Positions 35,331 through 54,076 of a stretch of DNA of 64,000 nucleotides are shown one piece after another. The translations under genes and the position numbers were made by a program. Origin of the DNA: a virus (Duplodnaviria; Heunggongvirae; Uroviricota; Caudoviricetes); the IMG/VR virus record IMGVR_UViG_2648501802_000002; one strand, written 5' to 3'. The notes beneath the pieces are model-generated. The model did no database searches, was not told the DNA's origin, and worked only from the letters and a program-made list of their open reading frames with translations. Numbering within the stretch: the stretch's first letter is position 1; each line of letters starts with the position of its first letter.

Positions 35331-36641
35331 TTAAATCCGAAGTGATGTGACTCTTCCGGTCGGTTTGACAATAGGGAATTGCTTAACGATGAAATAACCT
35401 CCTGCATCATTCGGGTGATCATTGCCAGATTTTTTATCAGGCTCCCCCTTCTCATCCCAGACCTGTTGCTCCAGAGATTCGGCATATAACGGGCAACGCT
35501 TCACATTAACTTTATAGCGACGCTCACCATTGGCATTGCAGAACATTGCATTCATTGAGTTAACGCGATCTTTTACTGGCGGGTTCGAGCTGTTCACCAC
35601 AACGTTAAAACCAGCCTGCTTAAGCTGGGCTATATCCGTCGTACTTGCGTTACTTGATTTTCTGGAATCCCCGGAAGCATCTGGATAAATATAAATTTCC
35701 CTCACTTTCCGGTAATCATTCCCATCATACAGCCAGAAGCGTTCTTTAATGATGCGGATCATATCCGGCGTATCGTAGGCATTGATGATTTCAGTTACCG
35801 CACATGGAAGCCCCAAACGCAGCACATGGACGATTCCCGCCATCTTTCCAACGTTAAAATCCATCCCAATATAAATCGGCTCCCCTGGCTGCTCCACTTC
35901 TTCGCAATTATTCAGTTTCCGGTCAAACTGATGGTAAACAGTACCACTTGTCAGGTTAGTAAACTGTCCTCGAAGATAGGCTTTAATCAGCTCTGGAGGG
36001 TATGATTCAAGAAGCGAAGGAATGTAATCTGCTGGCAGGTTCTTTTCATTATCGAAAGTAGATGCCTGCACCAGACCATACAGTGAGGCCAGCTCTGTTT
36101 TTTCACGCACGGCTTTAACAAACTGCTCGTAGACAAATTTGAATCCTTCCGGCGTGGTTGTAACGTCAATACCGTTGCGAAGTCCATCAATCTTATAACG
36201 CATACGTGCAATTATCTTGCGCCACGCCGTTCTGGCTTTTTCCTTCGGCAAAATGTCCAGTTCATCCACCAACGCATTACCAATTTTGAAACCGACGATC
36301 GTTTGTGGCTTCTCCATCGATCTGCAGATAGTGGTTCCCCGATACTGGCGTCCGTAATAAAAGTGAACCTCTTTATTTCCCTCATTAATTTTTACGTTCA
36401 ATCCCCAGTCAGCAGCAACTTCTTCCACTGTAGGGTAAAAAATATCGCGAATTTGGGGATACGTTGGCGCAAAATATCCCTGATTTATACCTGGATGCTC
36501 CCAAATCCCCTTGCATATGCCGCCACACCCAACCCATGTTTTGCCCGAGCCAAAACCAGCAATATAGGCTTTAAATTTATGGGGCATTGAAAGAAATCGC
36601 GCCTGAGGCACATTAAGCGTCGGAGAGATCATCTTCATCAC
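35331..36641 (-). CDS. Terminase large subunit
   Basis: ORF track 436 aa; Walker A (AGFGSGKTWVG) and C-terminal nuclease-like acidic motifs (IYIYPDASGDSR). Confidence 0.9.
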   Translation of the reverse strand: MMKMISPTLNVPQARFLSMPHKFKAYIAGFGSGKTWVGCGGICKGIWEHPGINQGYFAPTYPQIRDIFYPTVEEVAADWGLNVKINEGNKEVHFYYGRQYRGTTICRSMEKPQTIVGFKIGNALVDELDILPKEKARTAWRKIIARMRYKIDGLRNGIDVTTTPEGFKFVYEQFVKAVREKTELASLYGLVQASTFDNEKNLPADYIPSLLESYPPELIKAYLRGQFTNLTSGTVYHQFDRKLNNCEEVEQPGEPIYIGMDFNVGKMAGIVHVLRLGLPCAVTEIINAYDTPDMIRIIKERFWLYDGNDYRKVREIYIYPDASGDSRKSSNASTTDIAQLKQAGFNVVVNSSNPPVKDRVNSMNAMFCNANGERRYKVNVKRCPLYAESLEQQVWDEKGEPDKKSGNDHPNDAGGYFIVKQFPIVKPTGRVTSLRI

Positions 36642-37707
36642 TCCTTACTCTGGCATCAACCACATTAATATTGATCGCCACAGGCTGGGGATGTTCATTA
36701 TCTTCCACCGTTTCGATCTCTTTGCGCAGCTTCTGGTTTTCCATTCTGCGCCGTTCAATTTCCAGTTCCTGTAGCCGTTTATCTGCACATAAAGCCCCGC
36801 CAGCAGAAAACAAACGCAACAATTCACGCCGGGCGGCAGCCTTATCCTCCAGCAGGATCTCAACGCCGAATTTTCCGAATTTTGCCCCTGCATATAATTG
36901 CCGCGCATCCCCATCAAGCAGAGTGGTATCAGCCATATAAAGCTGTCCCGTTCCCTCACCGCAGCACTTCGGGCAGTCCGGATTGGGTATGGCGTTATCA
37001 ACAAAGCCGAGGCCTCCATATTCCGGTTCGGGTTTGCCATCTCTGGAAGCCTGCGCCGCTGCCTTGTCGAATTCTGCTATATCGCGCCACTGGTAGAGAT
37101 GATTCTCGCCCCAGCAATAACGGCAGTTAACACGGCGAAATTGTGCAAGCTGATTGGGGTCGGCCAGGACAATAGCCATCAACTGACTCACTAGTAAATC
37201 CAGGTCTGCGGTATAGCGTTTCTGGTACTGATTGCGGAAGTAGCTGATAGCGCGAAAAACCCTGGCATTTCTAAGCATACGACTGGCGTTGCTGTTAGCT
37301 GTCGCACCTTGCCCCTCATAACCGGCTAGTCGGTACGCCTCTGTCGGCTTTTTACCCTGAGCAACAAGCATCGCAAACTTAGCCTGCTGGTCAGAAATGC
37401 CGAATTCATCGGGACAGAACGAAAATTCCTCCGCGTCGCCCTCATTCAGGCCCGCATCGAATACTGGCTTTTTTTCCTGAGATTTTTCGTTCCGCTTTTG
37501 TGCAGTCTGCGCAGATTTTTTCTGCGCACTTTTTTGCGCAGTTTTGCACATTTCTGTCTGCGCATTTTTCGGAGTTTTTTTGATGTAACGACGGGCTGTT
37601 GCGTAATTCAGTCCCCTTGCTTCACACCATGCCACCGGAGATATACCGGAGCGGGTGTATTCAGCAATATACTCCTGCTGCAACGCCCCCCAGTCCGGTC
37701 TGCTCAT
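36613..37707 (-). CDS. Terminase small subunit-like DNA-binding protein
   Basis: ORF track 364 aa; N-terminal HTH (ISPVAWCEARGLNYATARRYIKK); immediately upstream of and overlapping the large terminase gene. Confidence 0.5.
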   Translation of the reverse strand: MSRPDWGALQQEYIAEYTRSGISPVAWCEARGLNYATARRYIKKTPKNAQTEMCKTAQKSAQKKSAQTAQKRNEKSQEKKPVFDAGLNEGDAEEFSFCPDEFGISDQQAKFAMLVAQGKKPTEAYRLAGYEGQGATANSNASRMLRNARVFRAISYFRNQYQKRYTADLDLLVSQLMAIVLADPNQLAQFRRVNCRYCWGENHLYQWRDIAEFDKAAAQASRDGKPEPEYGGLGFVDNAIPNPDCPKCCGEGTGQLYMADTTLLDGDARQLYAGAKFGKFGVEILLEDKAAARRELLRLFSAGGALCADKRLQELEIERRRMENQKLRKEIETVEDNEHPQPVAININVVDARVRSDEDDLSDA

Positions 37708-37710
37708 CAG

Positions 37711-37962
37711 TTAGTCCTGATTTTTATCCACCCTGAGTAGTTCGCGCAGAGCAAAGGCATCCCCTTTTCTGGCAAGCTTAAACAATGCCGCTCGTAACTC
37801 GGCTTCACCTTTCGCTCTGCCCTTACGGATGGCCGCATAAAAATCTGTCATTGCTTCCCGATTTTCTTTCAGTCGGTTCAGATCAACATCCAGAACGTCA
37901 GCGATTTGTTGTGCAGTCATCCGGCACGCTGCCAGAGACTCGACTTTCGAATACGGAATCAT
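37711..37962 (-). CDS. Small HTH DNA-binding protein
   Basis: ORF track 83 aa; HTH-like MTAQQIADVLDVDLNRL. Confidence 0.4.
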   Translation of the reverse strand: MIPYSKVESLAACRMTAQQIADVLDVDLNRLKENREAMTDFYAAIRKGRAKGEAELRAALFKLARKGDAFALRELLRVDKNQD

Positions 37963-38851
37963 TTGTCACCCCCATTGATATGCAGGGTGTCTTCTTCCTG
38001 TATTTTTCGTGAAGGATTTTTACTGCAGCGTTGTTCCAGGTGACCTGATGGTGAATGCGTTTATGGCTGGCACCCATCAGTGAGATTTTTACGCACGACG
38101 GCGCATACATGACGGAGTAAAAACTTTTAACGTAGGTTCCGGAATCCAGATACAGCTCGGTCATTCCGCCGCTGTTTTTCTGCGTCTGTTTCTGCCCTAA
38201 CTGGACAGCACCGATCGTCATAAACAATTCACCACAGCGACCGAGATTCGTGTACGTATTCACATCCTCGTTAATGCGCCCCATGAATGAGAACGGTCGA
38301 TCAACCGAACAGATAAAGCTGTTCATTGCCTTGCGTTTCACCCACGAAGCATGGCCGCCATTGTCACCAAGAAAATCCCCGCCCTGCGACATAGCGATGG
38401 AAAGAGCAGGTATTGATTCGTAGTACGCCAGCATTTCAGAAAGGATCGCATCCAGTTTCCTTATCGGAAAATAGGCCTGGTCATAGTTGCGATCCACCCG
38501 AAACTGGAACTCGTGATAATCATCATCGAGCTGAATGAAGTATTTACACCCGACCAGTTTTGCCAGGTCGAAACAGGCATTACGGGCGTAAAAAATTGAG
38601 CGGCGGTCACAGAAATTATCGGCTTCGTCAAAACGACTGGCGATATCGGCTTTGGAAAACACCAGCACCTGTTCACCAAATTCAGCCATGTACTGATTCC
38701 GTGTCTTATCTTCATCATCAACAACGATAAAAATTTTCCCGGTATAGCCAGCACGACGCAACGTCCGGTAAGTCAGAACTTTGTCCGGTCGCCCGTGAGT
38801 CAGAATAAAGGCGCAAAAATCATCACGCATATTCCTCCTCCTCACCACCAT
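37898..38851 (-). CDS. Hypothetical protein, possible nucleotide-sugar transferase-like fold (acidic DxD-like motifs)
   Basis: ORF track 317 aa; IFIVVDDED and IQLDDDYHEF motifs; overlaps and is coupled to the upstream ParB-like gene. Confidence 0.4.
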   Translation of the reverse strand: MVVRRRNMRDDFCAFILTHGRPDKVLTYRTLRRAGYTGKIFIVVDDEDKTRNQYMAEFGEQVLVFSKADIASRFDEADNFCDRRSIFYARNACFDLAKLVGCKYFIQLDDDYHEFQFRVDRNYDQAYFPIRKLDAILSEMLAYYESIPALSIAMSQGGDFLGDNGGHASWVKRKAMNSFICSVDRPFSFMGRINEDVNTYTNLGRCGELFMTIGAVQLGQKQTQKNSGGMTELYLDSGTYVKSFYSVMYAPSCVKISLMGASHKRIHHQVTWNNAAVKILHEKYRKKTPCISMGVTNDSVFESRVSGSVPDDCTTNR

Positions 38852-39614
38852 GCATGATCTCCACCATGCGCTGCGTCATCCGGACAAATCCATTTTCAAT
38901 AGCCTGCTGATAATCAATGATCACCAGCGCCGACTCCTCGAAAAAACACTGAATTTCAGAGGGGGCGTGAGCGTAATAGTCCGCAATTCTGCTGAAATTA
39001 AACACCGTGTGACGTTCTGCCGCACACAGGAGGAATTTCTCAATATCAGGCTCAAGGGACGCCGAACGTATCCGGCTGATCAGCTCCTGAGTTTTCGTAT
39101 CGTCGTACAGTTCACTGATATCCGGTTTACCGCCCGACGGCTCATAAACAGGCGTATCAATTTTCGTCGCATACGGCTCCTCCTCATTTCCTGTACCGGG
39201 CAAAACATCCGTCAACAGTTCATCAATTTCTGTCGGGATGAAGCCTGTCAGGGAGACATCAAAATCAGCATTGATTAGGTCCGACAGCTCCATCCGCAAC
39301 AGATCTTCATCCCAGCCAGCATTCATCGGCAGGCGATTATCTGCCAGGCGGTACGCCTTTTTCTGCTCATCCGTCAGGCCAGACAGAACAATGACCGGAA
39401 CAGAATCCATTTTGAGCATTTCAGCCGCCATAACACGACCGTGACCCGCAATAATTTCGCCCTTTTCGTCAATCAGCACCGGATTAGTCCAGCCGAATTG
39501 CTTAATACTTTCTACCAGTTGTGCCACCTGCTCAGGGCTGTGCGTCCTGGCGTTGTGCGCATACGGTGACAATTCTTGTAATGGGCGATAGACTATCTTT
39601 AATTTCTCGCTCAT
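38823..39614 (-). CDS. ynaK: ParB-like nuclease domain protein (full-length counterpart of Rac ynaK)
   Basis: ORF track 263 aa; ParB N-terminal motif (PVLIDEKGEIIAGHGRVMAA). Confidence 0.7.
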   Translation of the reverse strand: MSEKLKIVYRPLQELSPYAHNARTHSPEQVAQLVESIKQFGWTNPVLIDEKGEIIAGHGRVMAAEMLKMDSVPVIVLSGLTDEQKKAYRLADNRLPMNAGWDEDLLRMELSDLINADFDVSLTGFIPTEIDELLTDVLPGTGNEEEPYATKIDTPVYEPSGGKPDISELYDDTKTQELISRIRSASLEPDIEKFLLCAAERHTVFNFSRIADYYAHAPSEIQCFFEESALVIIDYQQAIENGFVRMTQRMVEIMHGGEEEEYA

Positions 39615-39751
39615 ACAGCCTTGCTTTATGAATAAAACGCACCCCAGCAGCCAGTGCTACTGGGGACGGAGGGGTTGCTGGTAAAGTTAGGTATTGGATC
39701 AATGAGTGAGTCAACATAATATTAAACTCACAATTATAAATCAGCCATATA

Positions 39752-41227
39752 TTAGGAGCGCCAAAAAAAACCTGAAAACAATATAATAACAGGATAAATT
39801 TCAAGGCGACCAAGAATCATAGCTATGCACATTAAACATTTTGCAATGTCATTAAGCACTCCGAATGACGATGCAGTAGCCCCAAAACCTAATCCCATAT
39901 TATTAATACATGCAGCCACTGTTGCAAATGATGTAAGAAAATCATATCCCATACCATTTAACACCAGTATAAAAAACACCGTGAAGAGAGTATAAAGAAA
40001 AAAGAAACTCCATACAGACCTCATTACACGATCTGTAACTATCTTCCCTCCTACATTTACACTCAACAACGCTCTGGGATGAGAAAGCTGATTTATCTCG
40101 TGTTTGCTTTGTTTGAAAAGTATAAGAAATCGAAGTGACTTAATTCCACCACAAGTTGAACCTATACATCCCCCAAAGAAACTTGACAACAGCAAAAACA
40201 CTATCGTGTGCGTGGGCCAACTTGCATAATCCTGCGTAGCTAAACCATTATCAGTGAGCATGGAGCTGGCAAGAAAAAACGAATGAATAAAACTTCCATG
40301 CAAGTCATACATACCTATATGCCAGACCTGGAAAGAGGTAACAATGATCACCCCTAAGGCTATTAACAGAAAGAAACGAAGTTCAATATCTCTGATTAAA
40401 GGTTTTATCGTTTTCCTGCTAATAACAATATACCAAAGAGTGAAGTTGAAAGCCGATAGCAGGGAAAAAGAACCAGCCACCAGCTCAACCAAATAGTTAT
40501 TAAAATATCCGATACTCTCGCTATGAGTTGAGAAACCACCAAGCGAAACTGTGGAAATCCCGTGACAAATAGCATCAAACAAAGGCATTCCTGCAAGTCT
40601 ATAACAGACAATACAAGCAATACCTAATAAAGAATAAGTTATCCACAGTGTCCGTGACGTATCGGCCAGGCGGGGAGTGAGTTTGTCATCCTTAAATGGC
40701 CCCGGCATTTCTGACTGATAAAGCTTTGCACCACCAATACCCAATAATGGCAATACAGCAACCGCCAGAACAATAACTCCTAAACCACCTATAAAATTTA
40801 ACTGTGACCGATAGTACAAATATGCCCGAGGTAATGAACTAACATCATCAATTACAGTTGCTCCTGTTGTTGTTATTCCAGAAACCCCTTCAAACAGAGC
40901 ATCAATGAACGTTAAATTAAGTTCTGAGTCAATCCATAAAGGGAATGCACTAATAACAGAAAACAAAATCCAAAACATTACAATTATAATAAACCCATCA
41001 CGGGTACGTAATTGAATGCCAGATTTCTTAGTTGTATACCACGCTCCGCCACCAATGCAAAAAAATATAACGAAAGTTATAAAGAAAACGAACAGGCTTT
41101 TTTCTTTATAAAACAATGCTACAACCATTGGTGGCAACATTGAAAGACTATAGAGCCAAACCAGGAACCCACACATATGAGTAACAACTCTTACATGAGA
41201 TGTATTCATATCTAAATATTCTTTCAA
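39752..41227 (-). CDS. trkG: TrkH/TrkG-family potassium uptake membrane protein (Rac prophage TrkG)
   Basis: ORF track 491 aa; polytopic membrane protein with repeated selectivity-filter-like glycines (SGITTTGATV, GGLGV, LGGFST); AT-rich moron in the position Rac has trkG after rz. Confidence 0.85.
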   Translation of the reverse strand: MKEYLDMNTSHVRVVTHMCGFLVWLYSLSMLPPMVVALFYKEKSLFVFFITFVIFFCIGGGAWYTTKKSGIQLRTRDGFIIIVMFWILFSVISAFPLWIDSELNLTFIDALFEGVSGITTTGATVIDDVSSLPRAYLYYRSQLNFIGGLGVIVLAVAVLPLLGIGGAKLYQSEMPGPFKDDKLTPRLADTSRTLWITYSLLGIACIVCYRLAGMPLFDAICHGISTVSLGGFSTHSESIGYFNNYLVELVAGSFSLLSAFNFTLWYIVISRKTIKPLIRDIELRFFLLIALGVIIVTSFQVWHIGMYDLHGSFIHSFFLASSMLTDNGLATQDYASWPTHTIVFLLLSSFFGGCIGSTCGGIKSLRFLILFKQSKHEINQLSHPRALLSVNVGGKIVTDRVMRSVWSFFFLYTLFTVFFILVLNGMGYDFLTSFATVAACINNMGLGFGATASSFGVLNDIAKCLMCIAMILGRLEIYPVIILFSGFFWRS

Positions 41228-42771: not shown

Positions 42772-43167
42772 CTAACCTCGCATGTCAAAGCCAGATTTCT
42801 GAAAATCTCTGTAGACTTCCGGATTGTTGAAGGCCGGAAATTTGGCTTTATGAGCTGCGGACTTTATCGCTTCGCAATAGGCTTTATCACCGTTACTGGT
42901 AGATATTTTTAACGCCGTACCATCCTGAGAGAATTCCATATGCAACCTGCATTTTTTCCCTTTCCAGTTATGCGGCTCATCAAGTTTGGCATTAATTGCA
43001 GCTCTGATTCCCCGCGCTTGCGCCCCCCATTCATCCTGATCATCCCAGCGTCCTGAACTGCAACTACCTGTAGCAGTAGTTTTGTGGCAATCTGAAGGGT
43101 GTAAAGGTGTGCATCCCGCAACAAAACCGACCCAAAAAGTCAACATAACGATTTTCTTTAATCCCAC
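42772..43167 (-). CDS. Lipoprotein (paralog B), unknown function; moron
   Basis: ORF track 131 aa; signal peptide and lipobox (FVAGC); shares GKxCxLxMxxxxxGxxLxxxxxxGDxxxCxAxxxAxxxxxxPAxxxPEVYxxFQ with the upstream lipoprotein. Confidence 0.65.
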   Translation of the reverse strand: MGLKKIVMLTFWVGFVAGCTPLHPSDCHKTTATGSCSSGRWDDQDEWGAQARGIRAAINAKLDEPHNWKGKKCRLHMEFSQDGTALKISTSNGDKAYCEAIKSAAHKAKFPAFNNPEVYRDFQKSGFDMRG

Positions 43168-43317
43168 TTCTTGCTCCTCAATCCATTAAAATCTCAGCAA
43201 TAGTAGTTGTTACGTCCGCCACTGGCTCAGAGCTGACTATCCGCTAAATTTAGCTCAGTGCCGTAGCTGTGTCAGAACAAACCTAAGCCGAAACCGTTTA
43301 TTACAAAACAATAAATA

Positions 43318-43746
43318 TCAGGGTTTAAAATCCAGCACCCCATTTTGAAATACTTTATATACTTCCGGCGAAGGGGGGGCAGGTATATCAGCATTCTTTA
43401 TCGCATTCATCGCTTCACGACATAAATCGAGGTCTCCACTTTCTCTTTTAACCTCCAGTAGAAGGCCATTCGGGGCCATATGCATTCTCAGTGTACACTC
43501 TTTTCCTGAATACTTACTCGCATCCCCGAACTGTTTTTCGATGGCGCTCTTGATTTGATGGGCATACAGACGGATATCCTCACTAACATCAGAAGTACGT
43601 TCAGATGAACTCACATACTGTGTCTCTATTGCTTTATCGGAGTAATATGATGTACGGTCATGATAATTTGTCGATACAGCATCAGTGCACCCGATAATAA
43701 TCCCACTAATAATCAACGTAAGAATTGATGCGCTACGAAAACCCAT
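43318..43746 (-). CDS. Lipoprotein (paralog A), unknown function; moron
   Basis: ORF track 142 aa; lipobox (IIGC); paralog of 42772..43167; AT-rich surroundings. Confidence 0.65.
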   Translation of the reverse strand: MGFRSASILTLIISGIIIGCTDAVSTNYHDRTSYYSDKAIETQYVSSSERTSDVSEDIRLYAHQIKSAIEKQFGDASKYSGKECTLRMHMAPNGLLLEVKRESGDLDLCREAMNAIKNADIPAPPSPEVYKVFQNGVLDFKP

Positions 43747-46717: not shown

Positions 46718-48109
46718 ATGACTGAGAACACGACTCCAACAGCAGACTTTAGTCCTAGTAAAAGATTTTTTGTGAGTATGCTAACTCGAGATATCGACTT
46801 AAACGATGCCATACTTGATCTGCTTGATAACTGCGTCGATGGGGCTTTACGTACAATAAAAGACACAAAAAAAACTTCAAAACCATATGAAGGATTTTAT
46901 GCGAAACTTACGATTAATAAAGATGTCTTTATTATAGAAGACAATTGCGGAGGTATCCCTAAAAGCTTCCGAGAATATGCTTTTAAAATGGGACGACCCC
47001 ATCAAAAAGAAGAAGAAAATGAAGGCACCGTTGGCGTCTATGGTATTGGTATGAAAAGAGCCATTTTTAAAATGGGTAGAGATTGCTCAATACAATCGAA
47101 TAATCCCGATGGCGCATTCACTGTAGATATAACACCTGATTGGATCGATGGTGATGGTTGGAAAATACCGATGCACGAGAGTGACTATGATAACAAAAAT
47201 CCAACAGGCACAACTATAGAGATAAAAAAACTCCATTCTAATGTGGCACAAAAATTTAATGAGAGCACATATCTTACTGATCTCTTTTTACAGATAAAAC
47301 ACTCATTGTCATTTATTATTCAAAAAGGATTTAAAATAGAATTAAATGGAGTTGTTGTTGAACATAATCCGATTAACATCATAACTGATCATTCTAAAAT
47401 AGAACCATACATATATAAAGCTAAAATAGACGATGTTGATATCGATTTAGTTGTTGGCTTCTATAAAAATTTAGAAGATGACAATGATGATGTTTTAGAA
47501 AAAAGGAGTTCTGATGATGCTGGATGGACTGTCATTTGCAATGACCGCGTTGTTCTATATTGTGATAAGACACATCTCACAGGTTGGGGCTTTGCTAATG
47601 TACCAAGGTTTCATACCCAATTTATAGCAATTTCTGGGGTTGTTCGCTTTACCAGTAAAAACCCAGAAAAATTACCAATAACAACAACGAAACGAGGTGT
47701 CGATCTTAGTTCTACATTGTACAATGATGTACGAAATAAAATGATTGAAGGGATGATGCATTTTATTCGATTCACCAATCAGTGGAAAGGTGAGCATCTT
47801 GAAGAAGGGAAAAAATTACTTAAGTCAGCTCAGTCACATGAAGCTCAATCTTTATTTGAAATTACCCCACAATCAACTCCAGAAGATAAAAAAAATAACT
47901 GGTCCAACCCTAATAGAAACAAAAATGAGTGGCGATATACACCTAAGCTGCCTACCCCAGTAAAAAAAAGCTCTACTGTACGAATAATCTTCACCAGAGA
48001 GAAAGAAGATGTTAAAATTTTATCTAAATATTTCTTTGGACATGAAGATGCTAGCGCTTCTGATGTGGGGATGCAATGCTTTGATACGGTGATTGAAGAG
48101 GTGAAGTGA
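46718..48109 (+). CDS. MORC/MutL-like GHKL (Bergerat-fold) ATPase with C-terminal region of unknown function
   Basis: ORF track 463 aa; N-box LDLLDNCVDGA, G1 box IIEDNCGGIP, G2 box GVYGIGMKRAIF; low-GC island; opposite strand to all flanking phage genes. Confidence 0.8.
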   Translation: MTENTTPTADFSPSKRFFVSMLTRDIDLNDAILDLLDNCVDGALRTIKDTKKTSKPYEGFYAKLTINKDVFIIEDNCGGIPKSFREYAFKMGRPHQKEEENEGTVGVYGIGMKRAIFKMGRDCSIQSNNPDGAFTVDITPDWIDGDGWKIPMHESDYDNKNPTGTTIEIKKLHSNVAQKFNESTYLTDLFLQIKHSLSFIIQKGFKIELNGVVVEHNPINIITDHSKIEPYIYKAKIDDVDIDLVVGFYKNLEDDNDDVLEKRSSDDAGWTVICNDRVVLYCDKTHLTGWGFANVPRFHTQFIAISGVVRFTSKNPEKLPITTTKRGVDLSSTLYNDVRNKMIEGMMHFIRFTNQWKGEHLEEGKKLLKSAQSHEAQSLFEITPQSTPEDKKNNWSNPNRNKNEWRYTPKLPTPVKKSSTVRIIFTREKEDVKILSKYFFGHEDASASDVGMQCFDTVIEEVK

Positions 48110-49098
48110 TGTCTGGACAATACATTCCCTATCACTTAAGGCATAATAAGTCTATTGATAGAGAGATTTTTCTCGAAAGCCTAAACCTCTTAAGCAAAAG
48201 ACTAAATATTCAAGAATATACATATATAGGTTTTGGTGGTCCGATGCTTGAAGATTTTAGAATCATGCATAATCGTATCGCTCTTTCTGATATGATTTCT
48301 CTCGAAGAACAAGAGTCTACTCACATCAGACAAAAATATAATTTGCCTTATAATTGTATTGATTGTAAGCTAATATCAGCTCATGACTTTATTCTTGATT
48401 ATAGTTTTTCTAAACCATCAATAACATGGTTAGACTATGCCTCCCCGAAAAAAATACAAACGGATCTAGATGATATACACTTACTAAGTACTAAAGTAAG
48501 CTCTTTTGATATTTTGAAGGTCACCTTCCCCATAAATCCTAGTTCTTATTACCAACGTAGAGTTGGAGAAAGTTTAGATATTTTTAAAGAAGCTTTTATT
48601 AATTCATTAAAATCATTGCTTGGGAAAAAGTATCTTGATTTTAATCTTCAGATATCAAATGCAGATCTTTCAGATCGTAAGATTAAAGCTCTTTTAATAC
48701 GAATTATTACAAACGCTTTTAGATCAGCAATAGAACGTGGTCTTTCAGGACGTAAGGATAAGATTCAGTATTACCCATTATCTTTAAATCAATATAATGA
48801 TGGCAGTCATACCATGTTGACAATATCAGGTTTTTTCTCCTCAGAACAAGAATATATAGAGTTATCTAAGGCATGCGACCTTTCTAACTGGCAATTTTAT
48901 TCAACAAATTGGGAAGACGTGCAAGAAATAGCAATACCAACACTAACAATTAAAGAAAAGATAAATTTAGATAGTAAACTGCCTGATAAAGAAGCATATC
49001 AGGCAGCCGCTGAAGAGTTCTCTTTAAACGAAAATGAACGGGATAACTATTATAAATACTATAGGTTATACCCTAACTTCCAAAGAATTATGGTTTAA
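48109..49098 (+). CDS. Hypothetical protein coupled to the GHKL ATPase (candidate effector/partner)
   Basis: ORF track 48106..49098; ATG overlaps the upstream stop (TGATG); 329 aa with no motif I can assign; low GC. Confidence 0.7.
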   Translation: MSGQYIPYHLRHNKSIDREIFLESLNLLSKRLNIQEYTYIGFGGPMLEDFRIMHNRIALSDMISLEEQESTHIRQKYNLPYNCIDCKLISAHDFILDYSFSKPSITWLDYASPKKIQTDLDDIHLLSTKVSSFDILKVTFPINPSSYYQRRVGESLDIFKEAFINSLKSLLGKKYLDFNLQISNADLSDRKIKALLIRIITNAFRSAIERGLSGRKDKIQYYPLSLNQYNDGSHTMLTISGFFSSEQEYIELSKACDLSNWQFYSTNWEDVQEIAIPTLTIKEKINLDSKLPDKEAYQAAAEEFSLNENERDNYYKYYRLYPNFQRIMV

Positions 49099-50217
49099 AT
49101 ATTCGGGCTGTACTCTTTTATTTAATAAATTGTACAGCCCCTTTAATATATATTCAGCAACTATTGGTGACACGCTATTTCCTATTTGTCTGAAACTATG
49201 CCATTTAGTTACATGAAAGCGAAACCAATCAGGGAAGCCTTGTAATCTAGCAGCTTCTCTTGGTGTAATCACTCTTGGATGATAAGGGTGGATCGGCCTG
49301 ACGGCTTGAAAGCTTCCTTTATCTCTAGCGGTTCCCGCCCTTAAAGTCGGGCAAAAACCATTTGGATCTAATCTTGTAGATCTTGAAATTTTATCAGTTT
49401 CCCCAAAAGATAAGGAAGCATAACGCTCTTGGACGATTTTGCTATGTAATGTTCCGGTACATCCAGATATGATATTATTTTTTAACTTAGCGATCGATTC
49501 TGTATCACCAACATTCCGAGGGATCTGCCCCCATAATTTTTCATAAAATCCCCCTTTTCGATCTTTTTTAATTGTTCGCCAACTCTCAGAGTCTGATTGC
49601 CAATTGGCATCGATAATATCTGGTAATCCATACAAAGCATCTTTTACAGTAACCGGATCAATCATTTTAGGCATAAATACTTCATCTGAAATATCAAGCT
49701 TCAATGATTTTTTTACACCGATAAAAAAATATCTAGTTCGAATAGTTGGAGCACCATAATCAGATGCTTTTACCTTGATGGGATCAAGAATATCATAATC
49801 ACCGCTAACCAAATTAAATGCTTTATTTCTAATGCCAGAATATTTCTCTTGCATAATACCTGGAACATTTTCTGCCAAAAAGAATAATGGCTGTAATTCT
49901 GATACTAAACGGTAGAAATGCATGTAAAGCTGATTCCTGCTATCATCAGGATTCCCCTTGCCTATTGAACTAAATCCTTGGCACGGAGGACCGCCAATAA
50001 TACCATCTATGGGCATATCGTTTTTAAAAAAACCCTTAATTATTTCTGCATTTAGTAAAGAAACATCTTCTTGGACGTGCAAACTTCTTGGAAAATTAAT
50101 TGCGTGAGTATTAATAGCATGTTGATCAATTTCAACTGCCATTTTAACATCAAATCCAGCACGTGCAGCACCAAGACTTAGACCTCCAACGCCAGAAAAC
50201 AAATCTATTACATTCAT
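49066..50217 (-). CDS. DNA cytosine-5 methyltransferase (Dcm-type)
   Basis: ORF track 383 aa; motif I DLFSGVGGLSLG, motif IV GGPPCQGFS, motif VI ENVPG; convergent with the GHKL operon, 3' ends overlapping. Confidence 0.9.
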   Translation of the reverse strand: MNVIDLFSGVGGLSLGAARAGFDVKMAVEIDQHAINTHAINFPRSLHVQEDVSLLNAEIIKGFFKNDMPIDGIIGGPPCQGFSSIGKGNPDDSRNQLYMHFYRLVSELQPLFFLAENVPGIMQEKYSGIRNKAFNLVSGDYDILDPIKVKASDYGAPTIRTRYFFIGVKKSLKLDISDEVFMPKMIDPVTVKDALYGLPDIIDANWQSDSESWRTIKKDRKGGFYEKLWGQIPRNVGDTESIAKLKNNIISGCTGTLHSKIVQERYASLSFGETDKISRSTRLDPNGFCPTLRAGTARDKGSFQAVRPIHPYHPRVITPREAARLQGFPDWFRFHVTKWHSFRQIGNSVSPIVAEYILKGLYNLLNKRVQPEYLNHNSLEVRV

Positions 50218-53287: not shown

Positions 53288-54076
53288 TTACCCCCTGAAG
53301 CCTGGCGGGATCGCACTATCCGGTAACGAGACGGTGTTAACCTGTCGGAGTAACGTCTCAGGTCGAACACCTTTCGGCGCGAACAAGCCCTGGTATTCGT
53401 TGGCGATGCTGTGTCGAATCACCTGCTCAGGTGAAAAACCCTGCTGGCGGAATTTTTCCAGCTCCCGTATCGCCCCGTTAGCGCCCTGCTCCGTTCGAAT
53501 CGGTTTTCGCAATGCCTGCCTGAACTGAACCCACTCATGCCAGAGTGTTTCCGGCAACCAGTCAGGCAGCTCGATAGCCTCCGGTTCGAATTTTTTAGAC
53601 GCTCGTTTTTGGCGAGGGGGATTTAGGGGGAGATAAGTATTTATATCTTCCTCTTTCTCTTCCTCTGGTAACGCTTTTTGATCCGTTTTTGTAACGCTGG
53701 CAGCGTTACCTTTTCGTTTCAGTTCTCGTATTTTTGTTACTCTCTCGTTTGTAACCGCCCGTTTTTTAGAGCTTTTCCCGTTATGGCGCTCAAAGTTAGG
53801 AAGCGACAACACACCATTAGTTTCGACCAGCCATCCAACCTGAATTAACGCATCAGCAAAACCAGCCATAAAAGTGATGCGATCTATTGCACTTTTTGTA
53901 ACGCCGCGAGCGTTACACTCTGCGTTACCGTCTATCATTTGTTGATCCGCCCATGCCCAGAAGCGAATGACTTTCCCTAATGCGGCATCTGGATCAATAT
54001 TCAGAATCTCAGCAAGCCTGAATATTTCCGGCTTATCCGGCGTAATAACTTCGAGCTTTATCCAGTTTGAAGCCAT
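53288..54076 (-). CDS. ydaU: Replication initiation-like protein (O-like position), gene carries iteron-like palindromes
   Basis: ORF track 262 aa; position between ydaT and the DnaC-like gene; palindromes GTAACGC-N5-GCGTTAC inside and just upstream. Confidence 0.6.
   Translation of the reverse strand: MASNWIKLEVITPDKPEIFRLAEILNIDPDAALGKVIRFWAWADQQMIDGNAECNARGVTKSAIDRITFMAGFADALIQVGWLVETNGVLSLPNFERHNGKSSKKRAVTNERVTKIRELKRKGNAASVTKTDQKALPEEEKEEDINTYLPLNPPRQKRASKKFEPEAIELPDWLPETLWHEWVQFRQALRKPIRTEQGANGAIRELEKFRQQGFSPEQVIRHSIANEYQGLFAPKGVRPETLLRQVNTVSLPDSAIPPGFRG

Follow-up and report, generated by a model that had tools for sequence, protein, structure and literature searches.

Among the glycosyltransferases of the TAGT family (PF20691) is the T2/T6 enzyme, from which glucosyl-hydroxymethylcytosine receives a second glucose (PMC13216743). 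Related phage GT-A enzymes glycosylate 5-hydroxymethylcytosine (5hmC) in DNA and resemble the trypanosome base-J glucosyltransferase, JGT (bioRxiv 2023.12.21.572611), and the characterised phage members of PF20691 and these related phage GT-A enzymes all act on DNA (PMC13216743; bioRxiv 2023.12.21.572611). TAGT, JGT and the GT-A enzymes associated with 5mYOX dioxygenases all use hydroxymethyl groups (PMC13216743; bioRxiv 2023.12.21.572611), which are supplied either by a methyltransferase and a TET/JBP-type dioxygenase or by a thymidylate-synthase-type hydroxymethylase (bioRxiv 2023.12.21.572611). About 65% of contigs with phage DNA-type glycosyltransferases have no neighbouring dioxygenase or hydroxymethylase (bioRxiv 2023.12.21.572611), and 288 of 753 glycosyltransferase-encoding phage genomes carry a "solitary" TAGT without an alpha- or beta-glucosyltransferase, the function of which was called undefined in 2026 (PMC13216743). 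In another phage system, ParB-like proteins without a DNA-binding domain activate cognate thymine dioxygenases specifically on double-stranded DNA (dsDNA) (O'Toole et al., PNAS 2026, PMC13229309). Here we analyse a full-length ParB-like gene and the TAGT gene coupled to it, upstream of terminase, in a prophage carried on a 64,000-nt stretch of DNA (the window; IMG/VR virus record IMGVR_UViG_2648501802_000002, Caudoviricetes). We propose, with slightly better than an even chance of being right, that the pair is a two-component, post-replicative DNA glycosyltransferase, a prediction from the genes.

Parts of this proposal have precedents. ParB proteins directing modification machinery during packaging were proposed in 2013 (as cited in PMC8256090 and PMC13229309), and a 2023 study remarked briefly on glycosyltransferase genes close to those for ParB and terminase (bioRxiv 2023.12.21.572611). 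The enzyme family and the ParB-activator principle are thus known already; a dedicated domain at the C-terminus of the ParB-like protein (the C-domain), its obligate pairing with TAGT and the absent precursor pathway are not described. In a literature comparison that left aside the 2013 paper defining TAGT (Iyer et al., NAR 41:7635), we found no paper describing or testing a unit of ParB/C-domain and TAGT.

The two genes are overlapping open reading frames (ORFs) on the minus strand, at 38823–39614 (263 aa) and 37898–38851 (317 aa). A sequence-only reading of the window had placed them at these positions, and the length of the ParB-like protein and the motifs it had pointed out (GHGRV in the ParB-like protein, IFIVVDDED and IQLDDDYHEF in the partner) were all recovered in the translations. 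It had also called K-12 ynaK a short remnant, and indeed b1365 encodes 87 aa and runs directly into ydaY. The partner is most likely 310 aa long and starts from the ATG at 38830 (37898–38830, with the longest ORF reaching 38851), because every homologue and the PGAP annotation share this Met8 start (MRDDFCAF...). The 317 aa given for the partner in the sequence-only reading are the length of the longest ORF. The Met8 start shrinks the overlap with the ParB stop codon from 29 nt to 8 nt (ATGCGTGA, 38823–38830, minus strand, holding the TAGT start codon and the ParB stop codon), and a Shine-Dalgarno-like run, GAGGAGGAGGAA, precedes the TAGT start. Overlap and run together read as a classic translational-coupling junction. 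Gene overlaps of 4–23 nt are the rule among 61 diverse viral loci with this pair, and the identical 8-nt overlap occurs in Pantoea and metagenomic loci.

What is the partner? The sequence-only reading had left it as an unknown protein, a description that no longer applies. A Pfam scan identified PF20691 TAGT over profile positions 4–205 of 205 (E 8.4e-35; 121 bits vs a cut-off of 27.5), PHROG 842 matched with E 1e-103, and all ~8,000 homologues carry PF20691. Several residues are invariant in the clade, R14, D102-D103-D104, D189 (of NEDV), G222 and T224 (of GGMT), K235 and H260-H261, and E188 is conserved in most members. An R...DDD...ED signature of this kind has been reported for DNA-acting phage GT-A enzymes and for the base-J glucosyltransferase (bioRxiv 2023.12.21.572611); here, this signature and a GGMT...K...HH block are kept from the E. 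coli prophage to a haloarchaeal virus. The AlphaFold2 (AF2) model is confident and Rossmann-like over residues 1–150, and its top Foldseek matches in the PDB are nearly all GT-A glycosyltransferases, with TM-scores of only ~0.35; a PDB sequence search with the 317-aa protein gave no match. The enzyme is mildly basic (isoelectric point, pI, 8.0–8.5). We conclude that the partner is an intact GT-A enzyme of a DNA-glycosylating family, with catalysis predicted.

The profile and structure search that the sequence-only reading had suggested for the partner therefore found a glycosyltransferase family and no structural-protein homologue. The same reading had doubted a PAPS-reductase-type partner for lack of an SGGxDS motif; this absence is expected because the partner is not an enzyme of that type. 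Unlike in the IbrA/IbrB-type pair of ParB and PAPS reductase, its only Pfam family is TAGT and there is no PP-loop motif. We also rejected membership in a known defence system, since TAGT had no match among the PADLOC defence models.

The 263-aa protein belongs to the ParB/Srx superfamily (PF02195, ParB-CTPase fold). ParB_N scored just above the Pfam threshold (28.9 bits vs a cut-off of 26.3), and PHROG 620 matched over the whole length of the protein (E 8.5e-91). The fold, an NTP-binding module followed by two helices, occupies residues 1–135 (39210–39614, minus strand) and is acidic (pI 4.7). The AF2 model matched CDP/CTP-bound structures of ParB, Noc, PadC and KorB in Foldseek (6sdk, 7bnk, 7nfu, 6ryk, 8qa9; E 2e-6 to 1e-5), with a root-mean-square deviation of 3.6 Å over 146 columns for Noc (7nfu). 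The sequence AGHGRVMAA lies at residues 56–64, and in our alignment A2 N21, S36, G57, G59, R60, D92 and N93 are invariant, H58 nearly so. Residues 10–144 also match the N-terminus of the PADLOC type II methyltransferase model (MTase_II, E 2e-38) and PHROG 498 (E 1e-50).

Is this protein a partition ParB, as the partition-like function considered in the sequence-only reading would have it? The canonical partition model TIGR00180 scored 38.5 bits against a cut-off of 58.45, and the Pfam scan gave no match to a helix-turn-helix family. No ParA gene is annotated in the locus, where the ParA-binding motif was not searched for. We rejected a canonical partition role because there is no annotated ParA and no detectable helix-turn-helix, the protein is strongly acidic and its C-terminal half is different. 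The label "partition protein" is likely misleading.

The closest described counterparts are instead the ParB proteins of the 5mYOX176/ParB176 class. Like these, the window protein is a short phage ParB-like protein beside a candidate post-replicative DNA-modifying enzyme, and in that class the cognate pairing is specific. Both have a nucleotide-binding domain, helices, a disordered linker and a C-terminal domain (in the window protein, as judged from the AF2 model), without a recognisable DNA-binding domain. Compared by described pattern, both carry the substitutions of Q52 by Asn and of E93 by His or Asp (ParB numbering) as well as the Arg of the P-motif, and the N21-x-R23, S36 and G57-H58-G59-R60 pattern of the window protein agrees with that of described 5mYOX-activating ParBs. 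Two differences stand out: (i) the adjacent enzyme is a GT-A glycosyltransferase and not an Fe/2OG dioxygenase, none of which was found; and (ii) the C-domain also exists as a separate gene without the ParB fold. A further class, the fusions of ParB to DNA methyltransferases (PF02195 with N6_N4_Mtase or Methyltransf_23; Kaljevic et al., PNAS 2025, PMC12704722), has the N-terminal ParB module in common with the window protein; both kinds are enriched in prophages and frequently found close to packaging genes. In contrast to these fusions, the partner here is a separate glycosyltransferase gene, bridged by the dedicated C-domain; the 2025 ParB-fold survey makes no mention of glycosyltransferases (PMC12704722).

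The ParB fold is followed by a predicted disordered linker (39120–39209, minus strand; pLDDT, the AF2 per-residue confidence, below 50 for residues 136–164) with the motif Y-T-x-K-I-x-T-P-x-Y-E-P-S (Y148...Y157). Within it, Y148, K151, P155, Y157 and P159 are invariant in alignment A2, the Tyr of P-x-Y-E-P is invariant in a 29-sequence cross-phylum alignment (A4), and the motif is found in stand-alone C-domain proteins too. The C-domain itself (residues 166–263; 38826–39119, minus strand) is an acidic alpha/beta domain of about 100–120 aa, conserved across phyla, with the consensus FL..AA.RH.VFNY.KIAEYYAHA...SALVIID. Its profile returned only noise from Pfam (best E 0.003–0.02, UPF0262 and Phage_Gene47) and from PDB sequences (E >= 0.02). 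The family comprises ~1,190 representative clusters at 50% identity; among the matches listed, the domain sits at or near the C-terminus of proteins of ~250–300 aa or ~130–200 aa, with few longer exceptions. The C-domain is previously undescribed and is the constant partner of this TAGT clade.

How strict is this partnership? Because an initial viral scan returned almost only near-identical E. coli prophages, we seeded the viral scans with distant homologues. Three "best 80" samples underlie the neighbourhood statistics, with the TAGT of Lactobacillus phage phi jlb1 and a stand-alone C-domain protein (L102) as seeds, and bacterial genome and metagenome-assembled genome loci were collected with the TAGT alignment; given this seeding, the statistics describe this TAGT clade and not all of PF20691. 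Every TAGT-fetched viral locus with enough upstream sequence had the C-domain (66 of 66). In 61 of them, the gene for ParB plus C-domain ends at or overlaps the TAGT start; the other five comprise a fusion (L123), three stand-alone C-domain genes (L102, L103 and L147) and a larger gene overlap (L167). Conversely, TAGT was adjacent in 71 of 77 C-domain-fetched viral loci and within 2.4 kb in 4, with 2 cut by a contig end (75 of 75 assessable loci). Among 78 TAGT loci in bacterial and metagenome-assembled genomes of many phyla, the C-domain was adjacent in 76 and the contig end intervened in 2. The C-domain occurs either stand-alone or fused to the ParB N-domain, and between about a quarter and nearly half of the loci sampled lack the ParB fold. 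Thus, the C-domain and the TAGT clade are essentially obligate neighbours, in both directions. We had considered a 191-kb Vibrio phage as a partner-less exception and rejected it, since a 140-aa stand-alone C-domain gene lies directly upstream of its TAGT.

Two further observations tie the C-domain to the enzyme. At L123:9287-10855, a single in-frame ORF of 522 aa joins ParB N-domain, C-domain and TAGT (junction ...KRFLK-MRDDFAVF...). In a mirror-tree comparison of 107 non-redundant gene pairs, TAGT divergence correlated with that of the C-domain (r 0.63) and with that of the ParB N-domain (r 0.43); the partial correlation was 0.51 for C-domain and TAGT given the N-domain and 0.07 for N-domain and TAGT given the C-domain (bootstrap interval of the difference, 0.15–0.25). 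The C-domain therefore co-evolves with TAGT more tightly than the ParB N-domain of the same polypeptide does.

The pairing also separates this enzyme from its described relatives. In Aeromonas phage 65, which is T4-like, the homologous enzyme shares ~23% identity with the window protein, and no C-domain gene lies within 4 kb of it; this suggests that the C-domain marks a distinct subfamily. The T2/T6 beta-glucosyl-HMC-alpha-glucosyltransferase, from which the PHROG 842 label derives, is in the same Pfam family (PMC13216743). It adds the second glucose to glucosyl-hydroxymethylcytosine and co-occurs with alpha- or beta-glucosyltransferase and dCMP hydroxymethylase; the prophage has no genes for these, and T2/T6 were not recovered at E <= 1e-3. 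Given the low identity to the Aeromonas phage 65 enzyme, the missing partner there and the unrecovered T2/T6, the PHROG-derived name is likely misleading for the enzyme of this prophage. Also related are the TET/5mYOX-associated GT-A glycosyltransferases and the base-J glucosyltransferase (PF20691; Burke 2021, PMC8256090; Pyle 2023, bioRxiv 2023.12.21.572611), which share family, fold and signature, and of which the former are likewise phage-encoded and sometimes in tandem for multi-sugar glycans. In contrast to the window clade, which has no recurring precursor-enzyme neighbours and always has a C-domain partner, these TET/5mYOX-associated enzymes act downstream of a C5-methyltransferase and a dioxygenase or of a hydroxymethylase, and are active without a ParB gene in reconstituted pathways.

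The pair is widespread. Of 5,426 complete E. coli genomes, 864 have the intact 2.1-kb module, which ten deposited phage genome records also contain at 99.6–100% identity, and a Rac-type prophage at ttcA in E. coli ST2747 has the same sequence throughout the region. More distantly, conserved versions of the pair occur in many bacterial phyla and in a haloarchaeal virus; full-length ParB-like orthologues adjoin TAGT in Lactobacillus phage c5 (ORF1, 40% identity) and Nocardia phage NTR1 (Orf1, 31%). The ParB-TAGT pair is not a chance juxtaposition.

Where does the pair sit? In the window, transcription runs from the lysis cassette through a low-GC trkG insertion to the ParB-like gene, TAGT, a small basic ORF, TerS (36613–37707, minus strand), TerL (35331–36641, minus strand) and portal, with Terminase_2, Terminase_6N and Terminase_6C matching the TerS/TerL pair in Pfam. 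The module of ParB plus second enzyme at terminase that the sequence-only reading had recognised is thus conserved, translationally coupled and followed by TerS and TerL. ParB-fused pairs lie directly upstream of terminase in unrelated backbones with at least four terminase families, for example in Pantoea and metagenomic phages, Lactobacillus phi jlb1 and c5, Nocardia NTR1 and a Porphyromonas phage; in halovirus HHTV-2 the pair is ~3 kb from TerL, and in the cos-type phage c5 it comes first after the cos site. C-domain-only pairs, often on large contigs, lie among genes for DNA polymerase A, primase, helicase, clamp, clamp loader and RecA. This second setting recalls the proposal, cited in PMC13216743, that links T4 alpha-glucosyltransferase to the replisome, inasmuch as a DNA glycosyltransferase would there be tethered to DNA-tracking machinery and the C-domain-only pairs adjoin polymerase, clamp and clamp-loader genes. 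The analogy concerns function alone: the T4 enzyme is of the GT-B fold and its substrate is hydroxymethylcytosine built in during replication, and no clamp-binding motif was identified here.

Could the two proteins simply have unrelated jobs? The ParB-like protein might serve packaging, in pac/cos recognition or as a nuclease, and the glycosyltransferase might be cargo for superinfection exclusion that remodels a host surface polymer or drains the nucleotide-sugar pool. The adjacency to terminase would suit such an arrangement, as would the HNH endonuclease and cos site found nearby in some phages and the presence of the prophage teichoic-acid glycosyltransferase TarP among the structural relatives of phage GT-A enzymes (bioRxiv 2023.12.21.572611). 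However, obligate pairing through a dedicated domain, a natural fusion, co-evolution and the start/stop overlap all argue for a shared task, and the C-domain accompanies TAGT also without the ParB fold, away from terminase and inside replication modules. The scans gave no membrane or secretion family match for either protein, membrane segments and signal peptides not having been tested directly. We regard unrelated jobs as very improbable.

Tandem TAGT paralogues occur in 9 of 80 TAGT-fetched viral loci, in up to five copies. On a 115-kb viral contig (L169:7794-13218), five TAGT genes follow a stand-alone C-domain gene in a row, and four other loci (L172, L147, L136 and L004) have two paralogues each. 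The paralogue nearest the C-domain is divergent, keeping the DDD and ED motifs and lacking the GGMT/HH block. Such arrays fit stepwise building of a glycan with multiple sugars.

Other genes of sugar or radical chemistry were seen near some pairs. In a metagenomic phage with the ParB-TAGT-terminase module, four consecutive GT2-family genes lie shortly downstream of the major capsid gene (L007:17837-20316 and L008:8659-11138), which points to a second, separate glycosylation, perhaps of the virion. In one of 16 ParB-fused loci (alignment A5), a UDP-galactopyranose mutase (PF03275, E 6e-75) is encoded within 6–10 kb of the pair, a hint that at least one phage prepares a nucleotide sugar of its own as donor, possibly UDP-galactofuranose. 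Three radical-SAM proteins are encoded within 6–10 kb of ParB-TAGT pairs.

What is the acceptor? Several points weigh against DNA. The ParB-like protein is strongly acidic (pI 4.5, net charge -25) and no DNA-binding domain was detected in it, so that only analogy connects it to DNA. In both AF2 models the C-terminal half is poorly predicted, and many of the top, low-scoring Foldseek matches of TAGT are GT-A enzymes that glycosylate proteins or peptides (ColGalT1, SunS/ThuS, glycogenin). Some sources annotate the PF20691 superfamily as "GREB1-related"; GREB1 glycosylates a protein, and the label thus allows for a protein acceptor. The L123 fusion, seen on a single metagenomic contig, could be a sequencing artefact. 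No member of this TAGT subfamily has been characterised, and DNA modification by it is a prediction from its genes. Finally, the absence of precursor enzymes described below holds at the sensitivity of Pfam and annotation; the metagenomic loci cover 6–10 kb on either side, and single occurrences of TET_JBP or Thymidylat_synt could be hidden in the bulk scans.

The enzyme could instead modify a protein, most likely its own partner, on the invariant Tyr or Thr of the disordered motif in a glycogenin-like manner, or else a packaging or replication protein; tandem TAGT paralogues would then extend a protein-linked glycan. The invariant Tyr does lie in a predicted disordered segment immediately before the C-domain, the Foldseek matches include self-glucosylating glycogenin, ColGalT1 and SunS, the GREB1-related label points the same way, the partner is acidic and without a DNA-binding domain, and obligate pairing in both directions is what an enzyme and its substrate would show. 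Against this stand the characterised phage PF20691 and related GT-A enzymes, which are all DNA-acting (PMC13216743; bioRxiv 2023.12.21.572611), and the low Foldseek TM-scores, at which the matches reflect a generic GT-A fold. A natural fusion of enzyme and substrate as in L123 would be unusual, even if glycogenin modifies itself, and the strict placement at replication or packaging genes, together with a ParB module common to DNA methyltransferases, points to DNA. We therefore consider a protein acceptor unlikely. The suggestion of DNA modification in the sequence-only reading gains from the PF20691 family and from the shared ParB module, as a prediction.

If DNA is the target, a hydroxymethyl-pyrimidine would be the expected acceptor, and PF20691 would be expected beside an enzyme that makes it. 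This association was not seen. PGAP annotation and Pfam scans of unassigned proteins revealed no dioxygenase or hydroxymethylase in the window prophage. The complete genomes of phi jlb1 (38 kb) and c5 (32 kb) likewise have no dioxygenase or hydroxymethylase, no annotated methyltransferase and no unassigned non-structural protein of the ~290-aa dioxygenase size; phage 5mYOX enzymes are ~290–300 aa long (PMC13229309). Among 295 neighbouring ORFs at 31 independent loci, in sets of 16 and 15, neither TET_JBP nor Thymidylat_synt matched more than once per set in Pfam. Since the prophage has no recognisable source of 5-hydroxymethyl-pyrimidine, the acceptor is probably not phage-made 5hmC or 5-hydroxymethyluracil (5hmU).

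The pair could still be a conventional 5hmC/5hmU glycosyltransferase if the acceptor came from an undetected oxidase, from the C5 methylase of the prophage together with a hydroxylase, or from spontaneously or host-oxidised bases. Precedent in the family favours this, in that TAGT, JGT and 5mYOX-associated GT-A enzymes use hydroxymethyl groups. The prophage does carry a C5 DNA methylase (49066–50217), several proteins of the compared phages have no assigned family (e.g., c5 ORF25 and the window ORF at 53288–54076), and isolated dioxygenase matches could escape notice in bulk scans. However, the methylase belongs to a separate island ~10 kb away, and a methyltransferase is not annotated in either phi jlb1 or c5; neither of these two phages has an unassigned non-structural protein of 5mYOX size, and TET_JBP and Thymidylat_synt do not recur in the 31 independent neighbourhoods. 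We regard such an acceptor as distinctly unlikely.

The island in question comprises three genes at 46718–50217 in the early/nin region: a HATPase_c_3 ATPase (46718–48109, plus strand), a PF20553 "putative O-methyltransferase" (48106–49098, plus strand) that overlaps the ATPase gene by 4 nt, and the convergent C5 DNA cytosine methyltransferase (49066–50217, minus strand). Neither the ATPase nor the PF20553 protein matched a PADLOC model; the island resembles methylation-linked defence or counter-defence cargo. We rejected it as a general explanation for the pair because it is not conserved with it.

A further possibility is that this subfamily with its C-domain sugars DNA without any phage-made hydroxymethyl-pyrimidine, directly on a canonical base or on a host-type mark. 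We hold this tentatively and think it more probably wrong than right. A small nucleotide or RNA target, such as a signalling nucleotide or another metabolite modified as counter-defence, with the ParB fold as an NTP-binding site, has the least to recommend it of the readings considered here. The ParB/Srx fold does include kinases of small molecules, SerK and Srx among them, and binds CTP, ATP or GTP (PMC12704722). Nothing in the locus points to such a target specifically, however, the ParB fold is dispensable in C-domain-only loci and the context is consistently DNA replication or packaging; we judge it extremely improbable.

How would a DNA glycosyltransferase of two components work? In our proposal, both genes encode one unit, a nucleotide-sugar-dependent glycosyltransferase that would act on double-stranded phage DNA after replication. 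The 310-aa TAGT would be the catalytic, mildly basic, DNA-contacting subunit, and the 263-aa acidic protein would be its dedicated accessory subunit. The C-domain and the Y-T-x-K...P-x-Y-E-P motif may dock onto TAGT or activate it, and the ParB/Srx NTP-binding fold may add nucleotide-dependent control or loading on dsDNA. Such an activating role, which we infer for the partner just as we infer DNA as the substrate, would have parallels in the ParB-like proteins that activate thymine dioxygenases of phages on dsDNA and in the ParB modules of phage fusions with DNA methyltransferases. Because the coupled pair lies in the late operon between the lysis/trkG genes and terminase, concatemeric DNA would presumably receive the sugar while it is packaged or shortly beforehand. 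Most likely, this would serve to shield the DNA from nucleases of the next host.

The genes around the pair complete the picture of the locus. The small basic ORF between TAGT and TerS (37711–37962, minus strand; 83 aa, or 69 aa in PGAP; pI 9.25) matches a segment (145–218 of 319) of PHROG 309, "terminase small subunit", with E 8e-23, and an 85-aa ORF occupies the equivalent position in Pantoea loci; it is probably a packaging accessory protein rather than a member of the pair. The glycosyltransferase of the E. coli lineage has an extra acidic C-terminal tail of ~25 aa (37898–37975), without counterpart in any other homologue, and this tail overlaps the start of the small basic ORF. On the other side of the pair, the trkG moron (39752–41227) is a low-GC insertion (GC 0.35–0.41 vs ~0.47–0.51 in adjoining phage genes) whose end, shortly before the start of the ParB-like gene, is marked by a strong terminator-like hairpin (39642–39665, minus strand; 10-bp stem with 7 GC pairs, followed by a T run), identified as a consensus match only. 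Late antiterminated transcription is expected to pass through this hairpin on its way to the genes for the proposed modification and for packaging. Two ORFs of 131 and 142 aa (42772–43746), located between the lysis genes and the Q-like antiterminator region and annotated by PGAP as TolA and TolA C-terminal-domain proteins, may mimic the host Tol system and so exclude colicins or other phages. In the tail region below ~27000, the ORF structure differs from the ST2747 annotation, and a 1-nt offset occurs near 46–50 kb; the tail-region mismatch indicates either a related but different strain or a mosaic prophage there.

What does the pair mean for phages with a TAGT? The "solitary" TAGT of this clade is not really solitary, as it always comes with a C-domain that is usually ParB-fused, and with this locus an enzyme of the kind becomes experimentally accessible in an E. 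coli prophage that is both common and inducible. If sugars are indeed added without a phage-made hydroxymethyl group, this would be a chemically new DNA modification, present in about one-sixth of sequenced E. coli strains as well as in temperate phages of many phyla and of haloarchaea. Should the unit glycosylate DNA, base modification activated by ParB would no longer be confined to dioxygenases but would include glycosyltransferases, and new acceptor chemistry could emerge. Many lysogens may then release virions with sugar-coated DNA, which would bear on restriction, on type IV and glycosylase-based defences and on artefacts in sequencing.

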